From the NCBI RefSeq assembly GCF_036971445.1, contig NC_091471.1, forward strand, positions 100,130,001 to 100,194,000: a DNA stretch of 64,000 nt, read 5' to 3'. This document shows positions 9,370 to 55,965 of this stretch, piece after piece (the first letter of the stretch is position 1; each line of letters opens with the position of its first letter). The notes beneath the pieces were generated by a model that saw only the letters and a program-made list of their open reading frames with translations, made no database searches and was not told the origin of the DNA. The translations under genes were made by a program, and so were the position numbers. Origin of the DNA: Narcine bancroftii. Lineage: Eukaryota.

Positions 9370-12300
9370 CCATTGAGTCTGTGGCATGGTCGGCAGCCGG
9401 CAAGGCAGTCATGGGGTCTCCGGCCCTTGCTAGGTCTCATATTGGCACAGTGTCCTCGTGACCGACTAGGTACCTCACAAATGCGTACTGGGGGTTGGCA
9501 TATATGAGGTGTACCACTTCAACCAGTGGATCCATCTTATGGCCTCTGACGTGCCTCCAAAGAAGAACCGGCCCTGGGGATATCAGCCAGGGAGTGATGG
9601 AAGAAACATTTGCCGACCTCCTAGGGAAAGCAAAGAGGCATTCATGCAGGGTTGTGTCAGTAGCAGTGCAGAGTAACGACTGGATGGCAAGGAGGGCTTC
9701 AGGCAGAATGACCTGCCAGCGGTACACTGGTAAATGTTTGGACCTAAGGGCCAGAAACACCGCCTTCCAGAAGGTGCCATTCTCCCTTTCCACCTGGCCA
9801 TTACCTCTAGGGTTATAGCTGGTGGTCCTGCTGATGGCTATGCCTCTGGTCAGGAAGTACTGATGCAGCTCCTCACTTATGAACGAGGTGCCTCGGTCAC
9901 TATGAATATAGTCGGCGTACACGAACAAAGTGAAGATCCAGCTCAGGGCCTTGATGACTGTGGCTGAGGTCATATCCGGGCAGAGAATTGCAAAGGAGAA
10001 CCTGGAAAATTCATCCACCACCATCAGGAAGTAGGCGTTCCTATTTGTGGTCAGGAGAGGGCCCTTGAAATCAACACTAAGTCATTCGAAAGGGCGGGTG
10101 GCCTTTTCTGGCAGGTAGAACTGAGGCTTACACTCGGCGCAGATTTGGAAGCATCTGGTTGTGGACCAGACATCCTCGACGGAGTAGGGGAGGTTCCTTG
10201 ACCTGATAAAGTGATAGAAACTCGTGACTCTGGGGTGGCACAGACTGTTGTGCAGGATCTGGAGATGGTCAAGATGCGCTCCAGCGCACGTCCCTCGGGA
10301 TAGGGCATCTGGATTGAGCTTACCCTGTCAATACAATATGTCATAATTGTAGGTGGATAACTCAATCCTCCACCTCAGAATCTTGTCATTTTTGATGTTA
10401 CCCCGTTGTTTGGCACTGAACATGAAGGACACTGTCCTCTGATCAGTCAACAAGGTAAATCTTTTACCAGCTAGATAGTGTTGCCAGTGGCGCACCGCCT
10501 CAACGATCGCTTGCGCCTCCTTCTCGATGGAGGAGAGCCAGAGTTCAGGACTGTGAAGGGTGCAGGAAAAAAAATGCTACCGGCCTGCCTGCCTGGTTTA
10601 ATGTAGCGGCCAGTGCGAAGTTTGGGGCTTCGCTTTCTACCTGGAAGGGAACGGACTCATCCACGGCATGCATCGTGGCCTTAGCGATGTCTCCTCAAAT
10701 CTGATTGAAAGCAGCTTGGGTCCCTGGCGATAGTGGAAAAATGGTTCCCTGAATTAGGGGTAGGACCTGATCGGCGTAGTTGGGCACCAACTGTGCATAG
10801 TATGAGAACAGCCCTAGGCATCTTTTCAGCATTTTCAGGGTGTACTGGACAGTGTCCCAGAAGTGGTCACATGTGGTCAGGGTCGGGAGCAATGACACCA
10901 TGTGCCTCGATGCATCCAAGAAGGGCCAGTGTTGAACACACACTTGTCCTTGTTGTACATCAAGTTAAATAACTTGGCCGTATGCAAGAACTTTGCAAGG
11001 TTTGCATCGTGGCCCTGCTGATTATGGCCACAGATGGAGACATTGTCGAGGTAGTGGAATGTTGCCATCAACCCGTGTTCCTCCACCATCCGGTCCATCA
11101 CTCTCTGGAAGGCAGAAACACTGTTAGTAACACCAAAGGGCACCCTCAAGAAGTGGAAGAGTTTCATGTCAGCTTCGAATCAGGCATAGATTCGATCACT
11201 AGGATGGAGGGGGAGTTAGTGGTGAGCCGACTTGAGGTCAACAGACAAAGAAATCCTGTATTTGGTGACCTTATTGACCAAGTCGGCTAGATGGGGGAGC
11301 AGGTACGCATCCAGCTGGGTGAAGCGGTTGATGGTTTGACTATAGTCAATTACCATCCAGGGCTTGCCCACCCCTCTGTCCATGAGGACCTGTGCTCTCC
11401 AGGGATTGGTGCTCAGGGCTATGATCTCCTCCGCCAGGAGTCGCTGAACCTCAGCCCTGATAAATTGCATATCCTCCGAGCTATAGTGCCGAATTTTGGT
11501 GGCGATGGGTTTGCAATCTGGGGTGAGGTTCACGAACAGCAACAGAGGGGGCACCCTCAAGGTGGTGAGGCCACAGGGTGGTGAGGCCACAGGTTGTAGC
11601 TGGGGACCGAGTGCCAGGCTCACTGGACATCGCTGAGGATTGAGTGCCAATGCCGGTGGACGGTGACGGAGATTGGGAACTGGGGCCACAGGATGGTAAC
11701 GGGGGCCGACTATCCAGTTGGGGATGATCACCCAAATGCTGAGGGCTGTGAATGGTCAATGGTGGTTGGGGGCTTCCAAACGCCATCGTCATGCTCCTAA
11801 ACTGACTCTGAAAGTCAAGGCCTAGGAGGATCGACGCGCAGAGGTAGGGCATGATTAATAACACAAAGTCATTATAACATTAACCCCCCCACCATCAGCG
11901 ATACTACACAATACCCCCAGATACTCATCTGTTGGTCCCTAGCCGCCATTAAAACCATCCTGGTCGTGGGTCAGACCAGGAGTGAGAATCTCTGGATCAC
12001 ATCGGGGTGTACGAAGCTTTCCGTACTGCCGCTATCAAAAAGACAGTTAATTTTATGTTCATTTACCTCAATCTGCATCATTGAGTTTGAGATCGGGTGA
12101 GGACCGGCTTGATTCAGTGTCACTGAAGCGAGGAGTGGCATTCCTTCATCATCGTTGTCGGTGGGGAGGCCTGCCCAAGATGGTGACCTCCATGTTGACC
12201 ATGTAGCATCGGATGAAGAAAAAGTCAGAAGTGGAGTCAAGGCCATCAGAAGTGATGTCACTGGCGCGGTAGGCAGAGGGGCTGAGGTTGGGAGTGGTGG

Positions 12301-13428
12301 CCAGTAATATGGCACTCCCCTCACCGCACATGCGGTCAGCACCGGAAGTTCTTCAGGAACGCACGCTGCATTGCTTGCTGGCTGCGATCGGGACCTGCAG
12401 ACCCTTTGGTAGTGGCCCCTCTTTCCTCAGCCCAAGCACATCGCTCCTTTCGCAGGGCAGAGGCACCTTGTGTGCTTGGCCTGCCCACAGAAGTTGCATC
12501 TCGACGATGCAGTCAGCGTGATTGCAGCCGTGGTCGGGTCGCTGATGCCTGACTCTGAGTCCCAGGCTGATGGCTCTCGTGGTGGAACATACATAGTTGG
12601 CCCACTTCTGCCTACGATAGACACTGCTTGGCGCTGGGCCAAGTCCAGAGTTCTGACCAGTTTGATAGCCTTTTTGAGAGGGAGCGGCCCTTCCTCAAGG
12701 AGTCTTTGCTGGATGTAGTCCGACCTCAAACCCGAAACACAGGCGTCTCTGATCAACTCTTCCAAGCACTGGTTCAGTGATATCATGCCCGGGCCCGTGA
12801 GATCCCCCAAACAGTCTTTTCCCAGTGTGACCAAGGACTGGACGAATTCTTTGGCAGACTCACCAGGCTGCTGTTTCCAGGATGCCAGCAGGTAACGGGA
12901 GTAAACTGAGTTCACCTTTGGTTTATAGAGTGCCCGCAGCTCAGCCATCGCCTCGGTGTAGGTCGCACAACCTAGGATGGTCAAATAGGCCTTCTGGCCA
13001 ACTCATGCTTGAAGCATCTTGAGCTTCTTCTCATCCGAGTCGACCATCTCCGCAGTGACATCGAGGAAATTATTAAAACAGTTCACCCACTGCTCGAAGA
13101 GTACTGATGCACCCAGGACTTGGGGGTCTACTTCCAGCCATTCGGGGCGCTGCAATTTCTCCATAACCAAAGAGTTCAAAAATCAAGCTCAATAAATTGT
13201 TGGACACTATTAGTAGCCCCAATAATGGCGCAGACCGAAGACTGAGGGGAACGATAGGTTTTATTGAGCAAGAGACTGCTGGCCCGGGTCTAGGTTAAGA
13301 AAATGCGCAGGAAGGAGAGGGGACTGACCTTTATGGCCCGGGGTCACATGGAAAGGATTAAGGGAGGATCTAAGGCAGGGAGACACCCGAAGGGCGGGCC
13401 AGCCAGTGAATACAGCCATATCACCACA
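9370..13428 (-). mobile_element. Gypsy LTR retrotransposon (5' LTR, gag, PR, RT, RH, IN; 3' LTR lost)
   Basis: 5' LTR 13198-13428 and gag ATG at 13164. Zinc knuckle CNFCGQAKH, protease LFDSGS, RT YLDNV, integrase VVDEFSRF/HSDRG/GNGQVERENG. Multiple frameshifts. Confidence 0.92.
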
Positions 13429-41394: not shown

Positions 41395-44020
41395 TGTGGT
41401 GGTGTGGTGTAATCAATGACCATTCCCAGACATGAAGCAGGTAGTCAAAGGCTTTATTGATCAGAAGATCCAGACATGCCTCTACATGCTGCTGGCTCAC
41501 GTCCAAGGCAGGTATGAGGGAGGAGATTAGAGATCTCGGCCTTTATTAGGAGATCTTATCTTTGGCTTGGCTTCGCGGACGAAGATTTATGGAGGGGGTA
41601 AAAGTCCACGTCAGCTGCAGGCTCGTTTGTGGCTGACAAGTCCGATGCGGGACAGGCAGACACGGTTGCAGCGGTTGCAGGGGAAAATTGGTTGGTTGGG
41701 GTTGGGTGTTGGGTTTTTCCTCCTTTGCCTTTTGTCAGTGAGGTGGGCTCTGCGGTCTTCTTCAAAGGAGGTTGCTGCCCGCCAAACTGTGAGGCGCCAA
41801 GATGCACGGTTTGAGGTGATATCAGACCACTGGCGGTGGTCAATGTGGCAGGCACCAAGAGATTTCTTTAGGCAGTCCTTGTACCTTTTCTTTGGTGCAC
41901 CTCTGTCACGGTGGCCAGTGGAGAGCTCGCCATATAACACGATCTTGGGAAGGCGATGGTCCTCCATTCTGGAGACATGACCCACCCAGCGCAGCTGGAT
42001 CTTCAGCAGCGTGGACTCGATGCTGTCGACCTCTGCCATCTCGAGTACTTCGACGTTAGGGATGAAAGCGCTCCAATGGATGTTGAGGATGGAGCGGAGA
42101 CAACGCTGGTGGAAGCGTTCTAGGAGCCGTAGGTGATGCCGGTAGAGGACCCATGATTCGGAGCCGAACAGGAGTGTGGGTATGACAATGGCTCTGTATA
42201 CGCTTATCTTTGTGAGGTTTTTCAGTTGGTTGTTTTTCTAGACTCTTTTGTGTAGTCTTCCAAAGGCGCTATTTGCCTTGGTGAGTCTGTTGTCTATCTC
42301 ATTGTCGATCCTTGCATCTGATGAAATTGTGCAGCCGAGATAGGTAAACTGGTTGACTGTTTTGAGTTTTGTGTGCCCGATGGAGATGTGGGGGGGCTGG
42401 TAGTCCCCTTATGGGGAAGGGCTAATGGTACAGGTCAGGCTAGCCTGCCGAGCCCAGTGAGGACATGCCCAGACATGCCCGCAGTATCGTGTTCCACCAC
42501 ATTCACTCCTCCTTTTTTTGAATGAAGCCTGGCAGGGTGATGCAGTGCAATGTCCATCGGCACAGTTCTTGTAGTCCATACAGTTCAAAAGGTACAGCCA
42601 CTCCAGCCATTTTATTCAGCGCTGAGATCTCTGATGTACTGCTGGCTGTATCGTTGGTTCCAGCAGAATGGTGGCTTGTTTGACCGGTTGGGTGTTGAAA
42701 GGCTGAACAGTATCTATGTGTACTGGGTCAGTAGGGAGTGGGGAAATTTTTTGTAACAGTGTGGGGGGGGGGGGTGGGGGGAGAAGGAAACACTCCAGTT
42801 GGAAGGGGAAAACACTCGGGGGACTGTGTCGGAAGTGGGATCACTACTTAATTGGTCAGGGTGATTCCTGTGGCCAAATCGTCACTGCCTGGGGGTATCA
42901 GGTGCACCTCCTATGCCGGGCCCCCCACTTGCACCTGGTCCCAGATACTGGGGATTCGTCTGCAGGAGGAGCACTTCCTCAACCAGTGGGTCTGCCTTAT
43001 GCATTCTCTTCCGGAGAAGCACTGGCCCTGGGGTCGTCAGGTAGACTGGCAGCGTGGTTCTCGAAGCCGACGTCCAAGGGAAGGAGAACAATTTTTTATG
43101 GGATGTTCCATTAGTTGGTGTGCAAAGTAGGGACCTGGTGGCATGCAGTGCTTCTGGAAGGATCTCTTGCCACTGGAATACGGGCATTCCTTTCAACTTG
43201 AGGGCCAAAAGGACTGCCTTCCAGATTGTACCATTCTCCCTCTCCACCTGCTTGTTCCCGTGAGAGTTGTACCTGGTGGTTCTGCTTGTAACTATGCCCC
43301 TGGAAATTAAGTATTGCCGCAACTCCTCACTCATGAAGGTGGATCCCTGATTGCGATGAACATAACTGGGGTATCCGAACAGAATGAATACTGTGCTGAG
43401 TACGTTAATGACCGTGGATGTGGTCATGTCAGGGCAGATGATGGCAAATGGGAAACGTGAGTACTCATCCATGATGCTCAGGAAGTAGATGTTCCAATTC
43501 GTGGACGGGAGCGCCCCCTTGAAGTGCATGCTGAGACGTTCGAAGGGGTGAGTGGCCTTGATGAGTTAGGCTCTCTCTGGTCTGTAAAATTGCGGCTCGC
43601 ATTCCACACAGAATGGGCAATTGCGAGTGAGCTCCCTGACTTCCTCCACTGAGTAGGGGAGGTTACAGGCTCTCACAAAATGGTAGAGCCTTGTGAATCC
43701 AGATGGTGGATGCTATCAAGGAGGGCATGGAGGTGTTCAACTTGCATCCTGGCGCAGGTTCCCCTGGACAGGGCATCGGGTGGCTCATTGAGCTTGCCCG
43801 GCTGATACAAGATCTCATAATTATAGGTAGACAGCTCAAATCTCCACCTCATTATCTTGTAATTTTTGATTTTACTCTGCTGTTTATTGTTAAACATAAA
43901 AGCAACGGTACTCTGGACAATCAGCAGGGTGAATGGTCTGCGGCCAATGGCGCAAGTCCTCCACTATAGCTTGTGCCTTTTTCTCAATGGTGGAGTGACT
44001 GCATTTGGGGCCTTGGAGGG
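41395..44020 (-). mobile_element. Gypsy 3' portion A (RNase H end, integrase, PPT, 3' LTR split by RTE)
   Basis: LTR 41395-42501 with TGTGGTGG..CCACCACA termini; PPT AAAAAGGAGGAGTGAA; integrase IMDEYSRF..QVERENG. Confidence 0.85.
41560..42405 (-). mobile_element. RTE LINE 3' fragment, same family as 13782-15971
   Basis: Near-identical to 13795-14642; short flanking repeat CTTAT. Confidence 0.93.
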
Positions 44021-45210
44021 TGTAATGTGACAGAGAGCACTCAAGACCAGAGAGAGTACAACACACTTTTATTCAATAAGAATGGCACACATGGTCTGTG
44101 GACTGAACTGGGGTTTTGGTGGGGATCCACAATTTACGTCGAGATATGCAGAAGGCAGAGTCAGGAGCCAGTCCTTAGAGCATTGCTCCAGTCGTGAGTT
44201 CCCAGTTCACTACATTCACCCCTTCATTTTGAATGAAGCCTGCGGGTGAAAACAGAGAACATTGGATAGTCAAATTTTTTTTTACAATATTTACAAGTTC
44301 AACCTGTGAGGAGGTCTGGAAATGTGGGCAGAGCGCCGCAGTGTCAGATGGCCTTGGACTTCCTGACCCTCCTGTGGTTCCAGGACCTTGGGGTGTGGGT
44401 GATCTGGCTCTGATTGAGGGGGTGGCTGGAGCCACTTCCTGCGACAGCTCATCTGAGCCCCTTGGCTTTTCTCCGGAAACCATGCCTAGGTCAGAATCCT
44501 GGCCCCCTTGAGATGATGAACTCTCAGTTCTGGCAGGTTCCAGGTCCCTGATCGAGACAGTGTCCTCCCTTCAATCTGGATATGCCACGTAGGCATAAGT
44601 GGGGTTGGCATGGAGTAGGTGCACCTTCTCAACCAGGAGATCGGATTTGTTCCTCATCACATGCTTTCAGAGCAGCACTGGACCTGGTGCTGTAAGCCAT
44701 GCAGGGAGGGTTGTCCCTGACATTGACTTTCTTTCGAAAGAAAACGTTAGCACGTGAGGAGTCACATTGCTCGCAGTGCCAAGTAGTGAACTAATGGAGT
44801 GGAGCGCCAAGGGTAGGACTTCCTGTCAGCATGGGTCTGGAAGTCCTTTGGACCAGAGGACAAATTTTATGGCCTTCCAAGCTGTAGTGTTCTCTTTCTC
44901 AACCTGTCCATTCCCCCGGGGGTTGTAACTAATCATCCTGCTGGATACAATGCCTTTCAACAGCAGAAACTGTTGTAGCTCTTCGTTCATAAATGATGAG
45001 CCCCAGTTGCTATGGATATAGCCAGGATATCCGAACAGGGCAAAAATAGGGTCTAGGGCCTTAGTGACGGACGGCACGGATTTGTCTGGGCAGGGAATAG
45101 CGAACAGGAAATGAGAGTACATGTCAATGACAGTGAGAAAGTACACATTCCCATTCGAGGAGGGGAGGGGTCTCTTGAAATTAATACTGAGACATTCAAA
45201 GGGCCTGGAT
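44021..45210 (-). mobile_element. Gypsy 3' portion B (integrase, PPT, 3' LTR)
   Basis: LTR 44021-44214 (TGTA..TACA); PPT GAAGGGGTGAA; integrase VIDMYSHF..GNGQVEKEN. Confidence 0.85.
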
Positions 45211-45254
45211 AGACAGCAAATGGCAACAGAATTTTAACACCTTTCATTCTGAAC

Positions 45255-46370
45255 TGTAATATGTGGAAGAGGATCAGAATACTCTAGGGTCACTTTTTAA
45301 AGTGACACAAGAAGTCAAAACCCAGCAAAACTGGAGCACATAAATTCTTAAGTACATTGTAGTGCAAATATAAGCTCTCATCACTGGAAGGAGAACAAAC
45401 GCTTTTATTAGCTTATAATTATGGGTAGGGTTTCACAGTAGTCTTTGGAAGGGTTCTGGGTTTAGGCAGGAAACCAGAGTTATATGTGAGCAGATGGTAG
45501 TGGAGCCAGCCACCAGCACAGCACACTACCAGTTCACTGCATTCACCCTTTCCTGCAGAATTTAGGGTCTGTGAATGATGACTGAGAATGTGGGTTCAGA
45601 AAAAGGAAGTTGAAAAATTTACAGTTATTTACAAATTTACAGATTTAAGCGGTCTGGGGGTCTGGAGATCCTGGTGGAACGCCTTAGCACTGGAGGGCCT
45701 TGGACTGCTTGGGTCTCCTGGTCCCCTCGTGAGGGAGGAGAGGCAGGCTGGGTCTCTGGGTTATCAGTGGAGGAGGATGCACTTTCCTCCTGAACCGAAT
45801 CCCCTGAGGCCCTGACTGGGGGTGGCGAGAATGAGCTCCGTGGCTCGCAGGGCAACATGAGGCAATGGTTCCCTCTGTTCCAGTGGGTGCCAGGTCCCTG
45901 ATGGAGACAGTGTCCTCTCTGCCATATGGGTACTCCACATATATGTATGTGGGATTGGCATGGAGCAGTTTCGTCCTTTCCACCAGGGGGTCGGTCTTGC
46001 TTCTCCTCACGTGCTTTCTGAGGACTGGGCTAGGAGTGGTGTGCCAGTTTGGGAGTGTAGTTCCAGAAGCCAACCTTCTTTTAAAATTCAATAAGACCTC
46101 GTGAGGAGTAGCATTGGCCATGGTACATAGTAACGACCAGATGGAATGGAACACCGTAGGGAGAACTTCTGGCCAGTGTGAGCCTGGAGGGCCTTTTGAC
46201 TTCAGGGCCAGTTTTACAGCCTTCCAGACCATGGTGTTCGCCTTTACAACCTGCCCATTCCCCCAGGGGTTGTAGCTAGTAGTCCTGCTGGATGCGATGC
46301 CCCTCGGCAGTAGGTACTGACGTAGCTCGTCACTCATAAAGGTTGAGCCCTGGTGACTACCAAGGATTAA
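45255..46370 (-). mobile_element. Gypsy 3' portion C (integrase C-half, PPT, 3' LTR)
   Basis: LTR ~45255-45541; PPT GGAAAGGGTGAA; integrase GNGQV..REDTVSIRDLAP; ends LRRSTRISRPPDRLNL. Confidence 0.82.
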
Positions 46371-46439
46371 CATTCACCATGAATGTCCTTACAATTTCCT
46401 GTACTATTTCCCTCACATTTTCCTCCACAACATAACTGT

Positions 46440-47860
46440 CAGGAAACTGAAAATCTGTGCCAACCAACTAGCCGGAGTGTTCACAGATATTTTCAACATC
46501 TCATTGCTGCAGTCAGAGGTTCCCACCTGCTTCAAAAGGGCATCAATCATCCCAGTGCCCAAGAAGAGTAGTGGGAGCTGCCTCAATGACTATTGCCCAG
46601 CAGCACTAACATCTAATGTGATGAAATGCTTTAAGAGGTTATTCATGGCTAGAATTAGCATGTATCTAAGCAAAGGACTGGACCCATTGCAATTCACCTA
46701 ACATCACAATTGTTCTACAGCAGACACACTATCACTAGCTCTCCACTCAGCTCTGGATCACCTCGAAAACTGCAACTCGTACTTAAGCTTCTCTTCATAG
46801 ATTACAGCTCAGCCTTCATCTCCATTATTCCCTCAGTGCTGGTTAACCCTGGGCTTCTGCACCCATCTCCACATCTGGATCCTTAACTTCCTCATTAGAA
46901 AACCACAGTCAGTATAAATTGGAAATGCCTACTCCCCACGATCAACACAGACACCTCAAGAATGTATGATTAGCCCATTGCTCTACTCACTATACACCCA
47001 TGACTGGGTGGCCAGGCCCAATTCCAATACTATATTCAGATTTGCCAACGACACCACAGTTGTCGGCAGAATCACAAACAGCAATGAGGAAGTGTACAGG
47101 AGGGAGATAGATCAACTTGTTGAGTGGTGTCACACTAACAATCTTGCACTCAACATTAGCAAAACCAAGGAGATGATTGTGGACTTCAGGAGAAAGTGAA
47201 GAGAACGCAAACCAGTCCTCATCGAGAGCTCAATAATGGAGAAGGTCAAGAACTTAAAATTCCTGGGTGTCAACATCTGAGGATCTGTCCTGGAGTCACC
47301 ATGTTGATGCAATCATGAAGAAGGCTTGCAAGCAGATATACCTTGTGAGATGTTTGAGGAGATTTGGTACATCACCGAAGACTCTCGAAAATTTCTACAT
47401 GTGTACCATGGAGAACATTTTGGCTTGTTGTATCATTGTCTGGTATAGAGTGCCAATGCTTAAGACAAGAAAAACTCCAGAGGGTTGTTAACTCGGCCTG
47501 CAACATCATGGACACCAGACTTCACTCCATTGAGGACATCTACTGTATAAGAGGCAGTATCTTATGAAAGCAGCCTCTATCCGCAATGACCTCCACCACC
47601 CAGACCATGCCTTCTTCACTCTGCTACCATCGTAAAAATTATATACGAGTCTGAAGGTGAGCACTCAAATAGACTTCTTCTTCCCCACTCCCATCAGATT
47701 CCTGAATGATCAATGAATCAAAGACGGTGTGTTACTTTGGCTTCTCGTGCACTATTTTCATTTATTTATTTTATGGTGGTTTATGTGAGTGTTTGCTCTA
47801 TGATTCTGCTGCAAAACAAATTTTGTGACTTGTTCATGACAATAAATTCAGATTCTGAAT
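46440..47860 (+). mobile_element. Rex-Babar/L2-like LINE 3' part
   Basis: [58 protein letters not shown]; tail AATAAATTCAGATTCTGA. Confidence 0.85.
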
Positions 47861-48086
47861 TCTCCATTCCCTTCTCAAAAAGGTTACTGGTACCTCATCT
47901 TTCAGTTCTCCAGCTTTCACTTTCAGCAGATTCTCCATTTCCAATCCATTATTCTCCATTGTTTGTTTCACCTCCAGACGAGATTGGATTATTTTTTCCT
48001 CATTGTCATTTTAGAATCTCAATGGGATCATTTTTATTTCCATCATCCTCAATGTTAATAGCATCAACAACATTGCACTCAGTCAC

Positions 48087-51000
48087 TGAGATAGTACGGA
48101 TTCTATCACCGATGTATATATTGTACTATAGGATGGCTGTGATTGGCTGAGAGCGTAGCCACGCCTACTGGCAGGTCTTAAAGGGTTGCTCCTAGCCAGA
48201 CCCAGATTATTCTGGACTAGTCAACCTACATGTGATATGCTCCAATCTTTTAGTTAATAAAAGCCTTGGTTTGGATCAATAAGTCTTTGATTCTTTTGAC
48301 GTGCACTACAATTTTATTAACCAAAACGTTTTCTAGGGATGGAGCGTATGCTATGACCGGAATGCCTCAACATTGACCCGCAGTCAGCTACTGCCCCAAA
48401 TTACTTCAAGCACTGGGTGAGGTGTTTCAAAGCTTACCGTGGAGGAAGACGGCCATCGACTGCTAGTATTGATGTCTATGGTGTCCCCGAGGGTCTATGA
48501 GAACATCCAGGACGCAGCCACCTACACAGTAGCCATGAAGGTGCTGAAAGGACTCTACGAGCGACCTGTGAACAGGGTTTATGCCTGGTACAAGCAGGTG
48601 ACCAGGAGGCAACTGTCCGGTGAGTCCTGTAGAGCTTACCTCCAAGCACTAAGGGTACTGGGCAGAGCCTGTGCCTGCACAGACAGAACTGCTGCTGAGA
48701 TCACTGACGATCTCATTCAGGATGCTTATGTGGCCGGGGTCCGATCGAATGAGGTGAAGCAGTGCCTGCTAGAGCAAGGGGGACAAAACCTAGAGGACGC
48801 AACCCGGATCGCAGAGACGATGGAGGCTGCAGTCTTAAGTATGGATGCTAACTCTCAAGTCTGGACCCCACGCTATGAAGTGAGTAGGATGCCTCTCCTT
48901 AACTCTACTAACCCACAGCCCACTGATGGCCTGTCTGCCACCGCTACCCTGCCTGATTCGACCTGAAGTGCTACTTCTGTGGGAGGGATAAGCACAGCAG
49001 GATCCAGTGTCCTGTAAGGAAAGCCAGGTGCCAGAAGTGCCTTAAAAATGCCACTTTGCTGTAGTCTGTGGCTCCAAAATGGCCACCATCAAACATAGTT
49101 CCTCGTGTGAGGCCCAACCACCATCCCCTCATTCAAACCTCTCTTCATCAGAGCTCTCGTCCAATGAGAGCGAGGGCTCGATCGCGCGGCAGCACCTGAA
49201 GTCATGGGCAGGCACTGAGCGCAGAAGGGACACTCCACCCTCACCGCGATGACGTTGGCCTGCTTGGACCACCAACAAAGAGCAACGGCTGCCCAGGCCC
49301 CGGCCTCGACTCAAGTGACCTCAGTGACGGTCGCCTCAGCCATGATTCTGGCCCAGACTTCAGCGACCACTGCCGCTGACCTGGTAACTGCTGCCAGCGC
49401 CACAGACCAGGTAACCGCCATGGCTACCACTGCTGCCACTGATGCTGCTGACCAGGTACCCGCCGCCGCTACTGCTGATGACTGGCCGACCGACCTTCCC
49501 ACCGCTGACTGCAAGCAGCGACCCCCAGCACTTACCGTTGGCAGCCCAATGGCCCCAGCCGGCTGCAAACAGCAGCCCAAGCCACTCGCCACCAACAGCC
49601 CCAGCCCGACTGCTCCAGTGACGTCACCACGCACACATAGTGCACTTCAGGCCCAATGCTGAGTGATGTCATCACGCAAGACTCCACTATCCCCAGCACA
49701 GGTCGCTGCATCAGTGACCCTGGACCAAGACTGCCCCATCCCCTCACAAAAGCGGTGGAACAGATTAAAGTGCACGGACACCATACTAACTGCTTATTTG
49801 ACTCGGGGTCAACTGAGAGTTTTATCCATCCAGACCTAGCCAACTGTTGTGGACTGGTCATTCTCCCCACTGACCAAAAGACTTCATTGGTGACTAGATC
49901 ACACTTGACTGGAGTAAAGGGGTATTGCGTGGTGACCCTAAAGTCCAGAGCATCACATTTATCGATTTTAAAATGTTGGTCCTCCCTCAACTGTGCCACC
50001 CATATTGCTGGGACTGGATTTTCAGTGCCAGTTCCGAACTGTTTCCCTGCTGGGGAAACTGGGGCCCCACGCACCACTCTCTGTCTGTAACCACACCACC
50101 CCGGAGGCTTCCTGCCAGCGACAGCCTACACCACCCGCCCCCATGCCCCACATGTAGCCTCTCCACTCTCCGGGTTACTCCTCCAGTACTCTTCGCAAAC
50201 CTCACCTGTGGCTGGAAACCAGTGGACACCAAAACCCAGCAGTATAGTTACGAGGACAGGAAATTTATCACAAGCGAGGTGCACAGACTGCTGGACAAGG
50301 GCATTATCGAACCTAGCTCAAGTCCCTGGAGGCCCCAGGTGGTGGCTGTTAAAAATGGGGAGAAGCTGCAGATGGTGGTTGACTACAGCCAGACAATCAA
50401 TCGCTTTTCGCTTCTGGATGAGTACCCCCTCCCACGGATCATGGATGTGGTGAATCAGATTGCCCAATACCGTATGTTCTCCACCATTGACCACCATTCG
50501 GCCTATCACCAGCTCCCGATCCGCCAAGAAGACCAGCCTTTCATGGCCTTCTAAGCAAATTCCTCAGGGTACACTTTGGGGTCATGAATGGCTTCGCGGT
50601 TTTCCAGCGGGAAATGGACCAAATGGTCGAAGAGAACGGGTCAACAGCTACTTCCCATATCTGGACAACGTCACCATCTTTGGCCATGACACGGAGGATC
50701 ATGATGACAACCTTGAGAAATATTTTCCAGACTGTGATTCGGCTGAACTTAACCTACAATTTCGACAAATGCGTCTTCTGGACCACTCGGCTAGTGTGGT
50801 GGAGAACAGGGTGGTAATGCCAGACCCTGACCGCATGTGTCCCCTCATGGACCTGCCACACCCCGCCCCCCACACCCAAATGGCACTCAGCTGCTGCCTG
50901 GGCTTCTTTTCGTACTACGGCCAATGGGTTCCACACTACGCCGACAAGGCACAACCACTTATCAAGACCAGCTCCTTCCCGCTGTCAACCAAAGCCAGAG

Positions 51001-52866
51001 CTGCCTTTGATTGCATCAAATCAGACATCATCGCTGCAACGCTGCATGCCATCGACGAGTCCATTCTGTTCCAAGTAGAGAGCAATGCATCTGATTTTGC
51101 ATTGGCGGCCCCTTTGAACCAGGCCGGCTGGCTGGTAGCCTTCTTCTCCAGGACCCTCCAGGGCCCTGAGAGCCAACACTCTTCTGTCGAGAAGGAGGCC
51201 CAGGCCATAGTTGAAGCAGTACGTCATTGGAGGCACTACCTCACTGACAGGCGCTTTACACACCTGACCGACCAACGTGCAAACTCCTTCATGTTTAGCA
51301 ATACCCAGCGAGGTACGATCAAGAATTACAAGATCTCTAGGTGGAAAAATCAAACTCTCCACCTTCAATTATGACATACTGGTAAGCTCAACGACCCGCC
51401 AGATGCACTCTCCAGGGGGATGCACCAACATACAACTGGACAGGTTTCAGAGACTCCACGAGGAGCTCTGTCATCTGGGGGTCACTAGGTTTGTGCACTT
51501 TGTTAAGGCCCTCAACAGTTGAGGAGATTCGCTCCATGACCCGAGCCTGCCCGGTGTGCACTGAGTGCAAGCCCCACTTCTTCCACCTGGAGAACACCCA
51601 CGTCATCAAAGCCACCCAGCCATTTGAATATCTAAGTGTGGACTTCAAGGGGCCCCTACTGACGACCAACCATAACACCTACATTCTTACAGTGATCGCC
51701 GAGTACTCTAGCTTCCCATTTGCTCTGCCCTGCTCAGACATGACTGCCTCCTCAGTCATAGAGGACTTGCATAGCATCTTTGCCATCTTTGGGTACCCCA
51801 GTTACATCCACAGTGACCGGGGATCCTAGTTTATGAGTGCAGAGCTACGGCAGTACCCCCTGGAGCACGGTATTGCTTCGAGCAGGACCACCAGCTATAA
51901 CCCACATGGTAATGGGCAGGTCGAAAGAGAGAATACCTCCGTCTGGAAAGCGGTCACGTTTGCCCTCCAGTCTAAAGGCCTCCCCACCACTCTCTGGCAG
52001 GACGTACTCACTAGTGCCCTACACTCCATCTATTCCCTCTTATCCACTGTGACACATGACTCTTTCATGAGGAAATATGAATTGGGAACAACCAACACCA
52101 GTGTGGCTCACTGTTCCCGGACCTGTCCTCCTGCGACACCATGTCCGCTACACAAAGAACGACCCTTTGGTTGACCGAGTGACGCTGCTCCATGCGAACC
52201 CGCATTACACATACATTGAGTACCCGGATGGGAGGGAGGACACGGTTTTGGTAAGAGACCTAGCCCAAGCCGGATGGGACCCGGCATTGCTCCCAACCCA
52301 ACCTCCTCCAAATCCTTCTCCCCAGGTCACGTGCTTGAACAGAGGGATCAGCACCACCCCACCAGTGGCAGTGGCAACAACTCAGGCCAGCCTGTCGACA
52401 ATCCCATTGGGGAATTCAGCGAGACAGGGCACGCACCCAAGGAGCCCACCAGCGACACGACTCCAGCGGCCCCAATCCCAGCACCACAGCGGTCACGCCG
52501 GGGTCACGCCGGACAATCAGGCCCCCCAACCTTTACAGCTCCTAACCTCCCACCAGTCTCTCTCTCTGCTCCCCCTTTTTTTATTTTTACAGCCCGCCAT
52601 TCACCCCGGGGTCAGTTCTCAAAGAAGGGGTGAATGTGATAGTACAGATTCTATCACCGATGTATATATGTGTATATTGAAGTATAGGATGGCTGTAATT
52701 GGCTGAGAGCATAGCCACGCCTACTGGCAGGTCTTAAAGGGTTGCTCCTAGCCAGACCCAGATCATTCTGGACTGGTCGACCTACATGTGATACGCTCCA
52801 GTGTTTTGGTTAATAAAAGCCTTGGTTTGGATCAACAAGTCTTTGATTCTTTCAGTGTGCACTACT
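48087..52866 (+). mobile_element. Full-length decayed Gypsy LTR retrotransposon
   Basis: LTRs 48087-48310 and 52635-52866, roughly 90% identical by eye. Gag ATG at 48339, CYFC..H..C knuckle, LFDSGS protease, YLDNV RT, RNase H (EKEAQAIVEAV), integrase HSDRG, PPT AAAGAAGGGG. Flanks GTCAC/GTCCC interrupt a LINE motif (NNIAL | KTKELIADFR). Confidence 0.95.
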
Positions 52867-53305
52867 GTCCCAAAACTAAGGAGCTGATTGCAGACTTCAG
52901 GAAGGGAAAACCAGAGGTATTTAATCCAGTGATCATTGGGGGAATCACAGGTGGAGAGGGTGAGCAAACTTAAGTTTTTGGGAGTCACTATTTAGGAGGA
53001 TCTTTCCTGGACCCAACACACCAATTGCATCATGAAGGACGCACATCATTTCCTCTACTTCCCCAGGAGTTTGCGGAGGTTAGATAAGACATCAGAAACC
53101 ATGGCAAATTTCTACAGATGTGTGGTAAAAAGTATGCTGATCAGCTGCATCATGGTCTGGTATGGGGACACCAATATGCCTGAACATAAAGCCCTTCAAA
53201 ATGTAGTGGGCACAGCCCAGGACAGCTTAGGCAAAACCTTCCACACTATCAGGGAACACTGCTGTCGGAGGGCAGCAGCAATCATCAATGATCCACACAA
53301 TCCAC
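52867..53305 (+). mobile_element. Rex-Babar/L2-like LINE fragment (target of the Gypsy insertion)
   Basis: KTKELIADFRK, LSWTQH, NFYRCVVKSMLISCIMVWYG. Confidence 0.8.
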
Positions 53306-53309
53306 ACAA

Positions 53310-55965
53310 CCTTGGTACATTGAAAACACATCCTGATAATTAGAATTAAATCCATTTAATTTATGTAGAGTATAATTGATGAAGAAAATTATATTGAACC
53401 ATTTGATATTTAGCATTTTAAATGTATTTGTAACACTCTCTTGATACAATTTGGACCATATTTCCTCCTGAATTTGTATATTCAAATCTTTCTCCCATCA
53501 TAATTTTGATTTATATAAATCTTTCTTCCTTTTAGTTCTGTGCAATTTTATATACATATTAATAAATTTCTTAATAATCAATATATCTGTTATATATCTG
53601 TCTTCAAATTCATTTTGTTCCAGGAGACTCAAATCTGTTCCTAATTTCATTTTTAAATATGATTTTAATTGATAATATGCAAAAATTGTATTATTTTGTA
53701 TATTATAGAATTATCTTTTAATTGCTCAAAAGTTTTTAAAAATCCCAAAAAACAATCTTTTATCCTCTGTATACCTTTACTTACCACTTTTACTTTTGCT
53801 GATCATGCAACACTTTTATTTAATTTACGAAAGTATGTGGAATCCCAAAAGCATTGTGTTTTAAACAAAAAATCCCATTCCAATCTATCAAATGCTTTCT
53901 CTGCATCTAACTCAACTGCTACTGCTGGTATCTTTCTATTTTGTGTGACATTTATCAAACTTAAAATTTTAACTATTTTATCTGCTGCTCTTCTATTTTT
54001 AATAAAACCAGTTTGATCCATGTTTATTAATTTTGGTAAAAATTTAACTAACCAATTAGCCAATAATTTTGGTACAATTTTATAATCCATATTCAATAAT
54101 GATAGAGGTCTGTATGGAAAAGGTTTTAAATAATCTTTCCCTTTCTTTGGAATGACTTATTAATGCTGTTTTAAAAGATTCTGGTAGTTCATGCACTTCT
54201 TCCATTTGGTTTAATACCTCCATTAATACAGGTACTAATAACCCCTTAAATTCTTTATAAAATTCTGGTGGAAAACCATCTTTATTATTCTCTAATGACA
54301 TCAAAGTCTCATAGATTTCTACTTCAGAAAAAGTATTAGATAATTCTAATTTTTCATCTTCATCTAACACAGGTAATTTTACTTGTTGCAAATATCTCTT
54401 CTATTTTATTATCATCTTTCAAAGAATCTGATTAATAAAGTTTGGCATAAAATTCCTTAAAATTATCATTTATTTTCTGCATTTTATAGAAAATTTGATC
54501 AGTACTTTTATTAGTGGCAATTATTGCCCTAGAAACTTGCTCTGCCTTTAATTGCCATGCTAGTACTTTATGAGCCCTTTAACCTAATTTGTAATATTTT
54601 GTCACAATCTCATTATATTGCTCTCCATTCTGTAAGTTTGTATTGTATTAAATCATAATTTTGTTCATTCTAACAATATTCATTTCTCTTCATTTTTTTG
54701 CACTTGTATTTTTCCAACTGATCTACCTCTTTCATGTATTCCTTCTTTACCTTTGATCTCTTAAATATGCCTTAATAAAATCCCATATCGTAAACTTACT
54801 CATTGCTGAGTAACTTCAAAAAGAAAAAAAATTATCTGTGGTCTCATAAAGTCACAAAGTTCTTTTTTCTTCAGTAAATGTTGTATTTAACCTCCACCTA
54901 TAACCTATCTTTTGTTCTTCTTCCAACAAAATTGACAGAATTAAAGGTGAATGATCCAATAGAACTCTCGCTTGATACTCAGCCTTTTGTATTCTATATT
55001 GAAATTGTGCAGAAATTAAAAACATATCCATTTATGTCAAAAAGAGTTAAAAATATTTCATCTTAACCCCATGACTTTCATTAAATCTATTGCTATTTTA
55101 GCTACTTTATTTTTCATCATTTTATCTCCAAATCTATCTAATTTAGGGTCTAAAGTAAAATTAAAATCTCCCCCTAATATGATTTTTCCCTTAGTATTTG
55201 ATAATTGCATAAAAACATCTTGTACAAATTTACCACCATTTACATTAGGTGCATATACATTCATTAAGGTCCAATATATCTGATAATTTACCATAACATA
55301 ACTTCCTGCAACATCTACAATTGTGTCTAATATTTTCACTGCTATATTTTTATTTATCAATATTGCTGTTCCTCTAGCTTTTGAATTAAATGAAGATGCT
55401 ATTACAGTTCCTACCCAATCTATTTTTAATTTTCCATGTTCTTTTTCTGTCAAATGTGTTTCTTGTAAAATCTATTTTTGCCTTTTTCACATAAACTAAT
55501 ATTTTTTTCAGCTTCATTTGATTCTGTATCCCATTAATATTAATACTAATAAAACTCAATTTTCCAGCCATCGGATCACTAAATCTACTAACCATCCAAC
55601 TTTCCACTCCCATCTCTCTCATTATTAAAACACTAAGATTACATTTCATAATATTTTTGACATATTTAGGTGTATTGAGAAAAAGAAAAGAAAAACAGAA
55701 GAAAATAGAACCCCCCCCCCACTAATGGCGAACATTATTAATGATATGTCCTTAAAACCCTGATCTATACAAATTGTGGTCAAAACCACACCAGCACTCA
55801 TGACTCCATAGAAGTTAGTCCTTCACTCCCAACTCGCCAATTACTGTACTGTCCCTTATTGTATTAGAGCTATACAGTCTTTGCCAATTACAATTTTTTA
55901 TTAATTCATAGATCCATTTGTTTCCCTTATTTCAGGAGAAATACTCTAGCCAGCCATTTCCTCTT
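53310..55965 (-). mobile_element. L1-clade LINE fragment (ORF2 EN and RT N-half, then jump to C-terminal region)
   Basis: ORF2 start MAGKLSFISININGI at 55571; NVYAPN, ILGGDFN, DQTGFIKNR, LDAEKAFD. Confidence 0.85.

Follow-up and report, generated by a model that had tools for sequence, protein, structure and literature searches.

How does a Ty3/Gypsy retrotransposon begin reverse transcription when no tRNA-type primer site follows its 5' LTR? The question is raised by an element occupying positions 48087-52866 on the + strand of the window, by which we mean the whole 64-kb stretch of DNA analysed here; the host genome measures 3.3 Gb, and the closest named proteins come from rays and sharks. 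An earlier note had pointed out that no TGG-type site lies past the 5' LTR, and that a one-base spacer, A, and a stretch complementary to the LTR precede the gag ATG at 48339, and our re-reading of the sequence agrees. Self-priming of some form is highly probable for this element and its relatives. We put at roughly 60% the more specific reading that the element's own RNA, cut internally just after the poly(A) hexamer, would serve as primer instead of a tRNA.

The hallmarks of Ty3/Gypsy elements are all present, namely an LTR pair bounded by TG...CA, a target duplication, a polypurine tract and the domain order protease-RT-RNase H-integrase:

48082..48086, + strand: left target-site duplication GTCAC; the element sits in a LINE fragment
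48087..48310, + strand: 5' LTR, 224 bp, with 3' end CACTACA
48178..48183, + strand: TATA-like TTAAAG, predicted promoter, 84-85 nt ahead of the paired segment's last base
48207..48213, + strand: initiator predicted from motifs, with its A at 48209; one base decayed in the window copy
48248..48262, + strand: paired LTR segment, candidate 3' end of the self-primer, terminating in AATAAA-A; 14/15 against the primer site
48263..48310, + strand: stretch from the paired segment to where the 5' LTR ends
48311..48326, + strand: one-base spacer A and 15-nt primer-binding site without TGG
48339..52600, + strand: gag-protease-RT-RNase H-integrase with stops and frameshifts, no chromodomain
52621..52634, + strand: polypurine tract
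52635..52866, + strand: 3' LTR, 232 bp, in which 52804-52818 is 15/15 complementary to the primer site
52867..52871, + strand: right target-site duplication GTCCC

The window element is a dead copy of a Gypsy clade that lacks a chromodomain. Its gag reads MERML and then meets a stop; between its two LTRs there are differences at about 19 of the 224 aligned positions and an 8-nt indel. Target duplications of 5 bp accompany 13 of 15 two-LTR copies (exact in 10, 4/5 in 3), as well as L091, L092, L093 and L115. LINE reverse-transcriptase fragments at 46357-47500 and 52872-53343, presumably of L2/Rex-like type, flank the element, which appears to have inserted into one. Between gag and protease lies an Ala/Thr-rich repetitive linker (49220-49660), which in the intact relative P0001 has expanded to tandem repeats of 15 residues. 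A search of Rfam over 47900-48600 returned just two weak matches far under gathering scores, the viral contigs searched held no relatives of the element, and the protein atlas offered only generic gag and pol clusters.

Complementarity between LTR and primer site

The 16 nt at 48312-48327 are the exact reverse complement of 52803-52818 in the 3' LTR (16/16) and match 48247-48262 in the 5' LTR at 14 of 16 positions; at up to three mismatches this 16-mer finds just two further sites in the 64-kb window, each with three. The complementarity originally described thus stands for both LTRs, but its sixteenth pair is private to the window copy. At the position of G52803, C makes up >99% of contig depth and G occurs in none of the 5' LTRs of 20 fetched copies, so the family duplex is 15 bp and not 16.

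Conservation of the complementarity among copies, on which the original proposal depended, was borne out within the family and clade-wide beyond it. In the 20 copies analysed of 40 listed, the LTR segment and the post-LTR site change together in three subtypes, and one subtype of the window family carries a one-base deletion in both arms. Across 32 copies of this family, pairing holds at 401 of 416 positions; when the sites are permuted among copies, the mean is 359 and the highest value in 5000 trials is 384. Two more families behave in the same way (175/182 pairs against 154 permuted, and 124/130 against 106), and a fourth, of 17 copies, has a single duplex type, no covariation signal and no initiator match.

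LTR-only searches with two unrelated LTR ends from elsewhere in the window gave 24 matches followed by gag; every one began with a T-run complementary to a segment of its own LTR, and none of these LTR-anchored junctions carried TGG. A motif-free scan found a 13-nt inverted match of at least 12/13 upstream of gag in 104 of 132 loci (two more of the 134 lie too near a sequence end) and in none of 131 control windows inside gag. Altogether 124 junctions were called in 26 clusters, 111 of which match at 11/14 or better; several of the 13 below that level are mis-called or decayed, and two other-host clusters (8 records) have a weak or partly deleted primer site. The first 4-6 pairs and the following G are forced by the search pattern in pattern-found own-genome loci, and the lack of TGG in all 124 junctions follows in part from the pattern by which junctions were called and is not evidence. 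At positions 7-14, which no search pattern forces, 19 cluster representatives (13 from the own genome and 6 from other hosts) show 141 of 152 pairs, whereas 10000 permutations average 74 and never exceed 101; the effect is large, and as the clusters are related these permutation figures are not to be read as probabilities. Genome-wide, the patterns matched 2710 and 4938 times, against 120 and 1064 for reversed controls.

Relatives occur in sharks, rays and a fluke, all three known from their proteins, and in other, marine hosts. Loci L091, L098, L102/L119, L116, L173 and L175/L177, found by protein searches of metagenomes and genome bins, each have a duplex of their own, as do L104 and L174, also from other hosts, by the motif-free test. 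The host of L091 has young copies, with LTRs that are 99-100% identical. The pairing is real and extends across the clade, and it is probably functional.

Other clade sequences lie in and around this material. A second, 3'-truncated member at 9400-13428 on the minus strand (LTR end 13198) has its own LTR/primer-site duplex of 10-12 bp. Three stacked 3' fragments (integrase, polypurine tract and LTR) from different clade families occupy 42400-46400, also on the minus strand, which suggests nested insertion. In the family of window 45358-45541 (L032-L060), most LTRs carry a second AATAAAAGC complement near their own 3' end, an alternative within-LTR hairpin that would compete with the primer-site helix. 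Gypsy elements also turn up in bacterial-labelled genome bins (L173, L174 and L176, of about 4 kb, and L175 and L177-L179); three of them are one-LTR contigs with overlapping ends. These bin-derived elements are probably eukaryotic contamination or collapsed repeats. Another such bin holds a Gypsy element of a different lineage (L180:786-8056) with a weak chromodomain match (E=0.004) and an envelope-like frame downstream.

Duplex geometry and predicted transcription start

The CA of the LTR is followed by a single unpaired base, which is A in 113 of the 124 junctions, and the loop measures 38-65 nt. The 3' end of the paired arm reads AATAAA in 80 of 111 junctions, ATTAAA in 17, GTTAAA in 8 and ATCAAA in 2, with 4 decayed; the GTTAAA and ATCAAA ends belong to three families from other hosts. 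GCC follows the arm in 74 of the 111, and does so in five of seven other-host families where no pattern forced it. Pairing ends sharply at 13-14 nt: with the register set on positions 1-7 alone, 102-106 of 112 junctions are paired at each of positions 8-13, 78 at position 14, 46 at position 15 and 25 at position 16. Mismatches in 107 junctions comprise 12 G-U against 18 A-C, and so show no wobble excess.

In folding, the mean pairing probability of the main helix exceeds 0.85 for 13 of 19 representatives and is 0.63 for the decayed window copy, and the loop is itself structured (p=0.003-0.006). A second helix between the upstream LTR and the gag start codon was considered and rejected (native -210.5, permuted mean -224, p=0.85).

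Promoter motifs place the start of transcription well upstream of the duplex. In the window copy the predicted initiator follows the TATA-like box by 31 nt and precedes the paired segment by 39 nt; within the window family a TATA-like box is found in 31 of 33 copies and is joined by an initiator in 29. More broadly, a TATA-like box stands 52-90 nt upstream of the paired core in 78 of 94 own-genome junctions, 52 of which also have an initiator 27-34 nt past the box, and at 22-40 nt in only one; these counts cover own-genome families, use search windows of unequal size and rely on a motif list picked after the sequences had been viewed. From these motifs we predict that transcription begins some 30-47 nt ahead of the paired arm. 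The earlier note had instead expected the start at the beginning of the paired segment, an expectation that the motifs, with a single box at a matching distance, do not support. The initiator-like TCCAGT it cited is present in the 3' LTR, but the 5' LTR reads TCCAAT, and the initiator linked to a TATA-like box lies 39 nt further upstream.

Candidate priming mechanism and its alternatives

A primer site that covaries with an LTR segment over 13-15 base pairs makes priming by the element's own RNA likely, and the 3' end of the arm faces the LTR end, which is the geometry required to prime minus-strand strong-stop DNA. In the reading we favour, the transcript would begin some 30-47 nt upstream of the arm, and its 5' R copy of the arm would fold onto the primer site. 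The RNA would then be cut immediately 3' of AAA(A), in most cases before GCC, probably by the RNase H that the element encodes, as happens in Tf1. From the 3' OH so exposed, RT would copy through the loop until it reached the cut; the first strand transfer would then proceed via the ~15-20 nt between the cut and the typical poly(A) site. During plus-strand synthesis, RT would copy some 13-14 nt of the attached primer until RNase H releases it, and the primer site would thereby be rewritten from the LTR in every cycle.

Such rewriting would explain why covariation is fast and confined to Watson-Crick changes, and why the length is fixed. With a start far upstream, the 13-14 nt length must be fixed by something other than the start site. 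It is similar to the distance between polymerase and RNase H in RT of the Ty3 type, the Ty3 and CaMV enzymes cutting RNA 10-14 nt from the polymerase site, although that spacing was obtained with other enzymes than the one at issue here (PMC11363490).

The same duplex may also mask the 5' poly(A) signal. Hiding of the 5' LTR signal is plausible, since AATAAA or ATTAAA closes the paired segment in 97 of 111 junctions; as the primer site is not part of the LTR and does not follow the 3' LTR, only the 5' signal would be maskable.

An unlikely variant is that the primer comes from the identical segment in the 3' R, with the RNA end or a second RNA pairing, being cut or trimmed to the hexamer and priming while the 5' R stays template. 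Both RNA ends contain the segment, which stops at the poly(A) hexamer in 97 of 111 junctions, and in the window element, a single old copy, the 3' LTR pairs better than the 5' LTR (15/15 against 14/15). Sequence alone would fit a primer from either R. However, the local 5' fold is favoured and forms first, with helix probability above 0.85 in 13 of 19 representatives, the loop is held at 38-65 nt, and Tf1 employs its 5' copy as self-primer (PMC10085805).

Internal cutting of the 5' R also has to be weighed against the strict Tf1 mode, in which transcription would start at the first paired base and the 13-15 nt arm would be the entire primer. Such a start would account for the sharp boundary at 13-14 nt, and primers of Tf1/sushi elements lie at the RNA 5' end (PMC10085805, PMC4600332). 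We nevertheless consider this mode quite unlikely, as a TATA-like box stands at the matching distance in 1 of 94 junctions and further upstream in 78 (52 with an initiator), and the arm often starts in a T-run.

It is very unlikely that the duplex serves only to hide the 5' LTR poly(A) signal while another primer is used. Its fixed register with the hexamer and built-in 5'/3' asymmetry would suit such a role, but its partner arm sits exactly at the primer position, one base past the LTR end in 113 of 124 junctions, the wobble excess that a purely structural helix would allow is missing, and three families have GTTAAA or ATCAAA ends.

Priming by tRNA is the rule. In the same genome, elements that we take to be Mag C-like, Mag A/B-like, CsRn1-like and Gmr1-like from RT motifs (the last also from an integrase preceding RT) have TGG within six bases of the LTR. 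These four lineages, together with covariation within and between families, lend strong support to the idea, first raised in the earlier note, that a Gypsy lineage without a chromodomain primes itself. That note had also proposed comparing the site with tRNAs: the 53 distinct 14-nt primer sites reach an exact match of at most 9 nt to 28 host tRNA genes, a sample of 13 anticodon types. Priming by a tRNA end or internal tRNA fragment, with the LTR match incidental, can be set aside as extremely improbable even though this is the usual route and the tapeworm Saci2, a possible relative, has variable primer sites assigned to different tRNAs (PMC12471100), since each of the 53 sites tracks its own LTR, the matches to sampled tRNAs are this short and TGG occurs in 0/24 LTR-anchored junctions.

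Placement and comparison with known systems

As the earlier note had stated, there is no chromodomain: PF00385 is absent from five of five intact relatives and from the last frames of the window element, and of 16 matches to it in a genome search none lies beside a Gypsy pol. In RT-RNase H trees the clade forms one side of a branch with support of 100 and has a long stem, and fluke protein P0029 falls inside it. The clade groups with Mag-like rows, apart from sushi, with support of 92 in a quick tree of 49 rows and of 97/87 in a tree of 28 of those rows, but forcing it to join sushi costs 11.7 log units and is not rejected (AU p=0.28), so that an independent origin is favoured and not shown. 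These trees are unrooted, include 4-8 fish sushi proteins and contain no fungal Tf1, Cigr-1 or Saci2 sequence, and the Gmr1 row L159 (178 aa) was left out of the 49-row tree for its length. Against Ty3 RT the clade scores 183-201 bits, and two outgroups score higher (238 and 279). The own genome also holds highly decayed sushi-like chromovirus fossils (L392 and L394); a sushi-like fossil copy of this genome led to the fish chromovirus proteins with PF00385.

The broadest statement of our case is that a large animal Gypsy clade evolved self-priming independently of Tf1/sushi, with an internal primer cut where the hexamer ends, a start site far upstream, a primer site rewritten each cycle to a length set by the polymerase-RNase H ruler of the RT, and a single helix serving both for priming and for silencing of the 5' poly(A) signal; taken as a whole it is tentative, and less likely than not to hold. 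If it is true, the element would be freed from tRNA supply and would be predicted to escape silencing by tRNA fragments. A second self-priming clade, without chromodomain and with thousands of copies in one genome, would make tRNA-free priming common in animals and probably of more than one origin. The clade would also provide a natural covariation series on how primers are cut and inherited, and would link priming to the choice of poly(A) site. Annotation that forces a tRNA on every primer site will mislabel it.

Published accounts tie Gypsy self-priming to Tf1/sushi chromoviruses (PMC6317226, PMC10085805), and that tie, with predicted plant Copia cases, is what the wider literature consulted offers (PMC6317226, PMC4600332, PMC3601003, PMC3670739, PMC8556966, PMC11042837, PMC5445492, PMC7472051, PMC5341516, PMC5006619, PMC11363490, PMC10085805, PMC6934838, PMC6238403, PMC12471100). 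The literature searched, which did not cover the older Tf1 and Cigr-1 papers or Repbase notes, gave no earlier account of self-priming in this clade.

For the clade's name our best guess is Cigr-1, on the basis of shared features and of a published listing. The LTRs of Cigr-1 are 245 bp long, its single ORF runs to about 1210 codons and its gag is SURL-like, features that the intact relatives of our clade, at 1180-1245 aa, resemble. The Cigr-1 clade is known from Ciona and, according to PMC6238403 and PMC8556966, from molluscs and annelids as well. Among its reference elements PMC6238403 lists Cigr-1 with Mag, with which the clade described here also groups, and the excerpts of these two accounts make no mention of primer sites.

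The flatworm Saci2/lennie clade likewise has a single Gag-Pol ORF, TGT...ACA LTRs and variable primer sites (PMC12471100). It differs in having 4-bp target duplications and LTRs of 251-521 bp, against 5 bp and ~185-230 bp here, and its author assigned tRNA primers to it (PMC12471100). For the plant TAR Copia elements (Houba, Osr-1) and Tcn1, an LTR match of 10 bp or more has led to a prediction of self-priming (PMC6317226), which shows that the mechanism can arise outside Tf1/sushi. These elements belong to the Copia superfamily or to the chromoviruses and have plant hosts, unlike the clade described here.

Closest in mechanism are Tf1, Tf2, Tj1 and the wider Tf1/sushi group of fungi, fish and mosses, which share with our clade the Gypsy domain order, the lack of a tRNA site and a primer site complementary to their own 5' LTR. 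About half of Tf1 cDNA retains the copied primer site as single-stranded 3' DNA (PMC11042837). Loci L016 and L018 are tandem elements with one common LTR, a likeness to Tf1; in them a 3' LTR is followed by a primer site of another subtype, and a 5' LTR is preceded by a polypurine tract. Tandem elements sharing an LTR have been described for integrase-independent Tf1 insertion and are common in other LTR elements too. The differences from Tf1/sushi lie elsewhere. Fish sushi proteins carry a chromodomain and our clade does not; the third duplex of the Tf1 'pretzel', between the loop and sequence past the primer site, was not detected above permutation (p=0.12 and 0.52); the Tf1/sushi primer lies at the RNA 5' end, whereas the arm of our clade is predicted to be internal; and this arm, unlike theirs, terminates on a poly(A) hexamer. 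The priming proposed here would be of a known kind, the self-priming of Tf1/sushi, and what is likely new is its presence in a clade that apparently stands outside that group.
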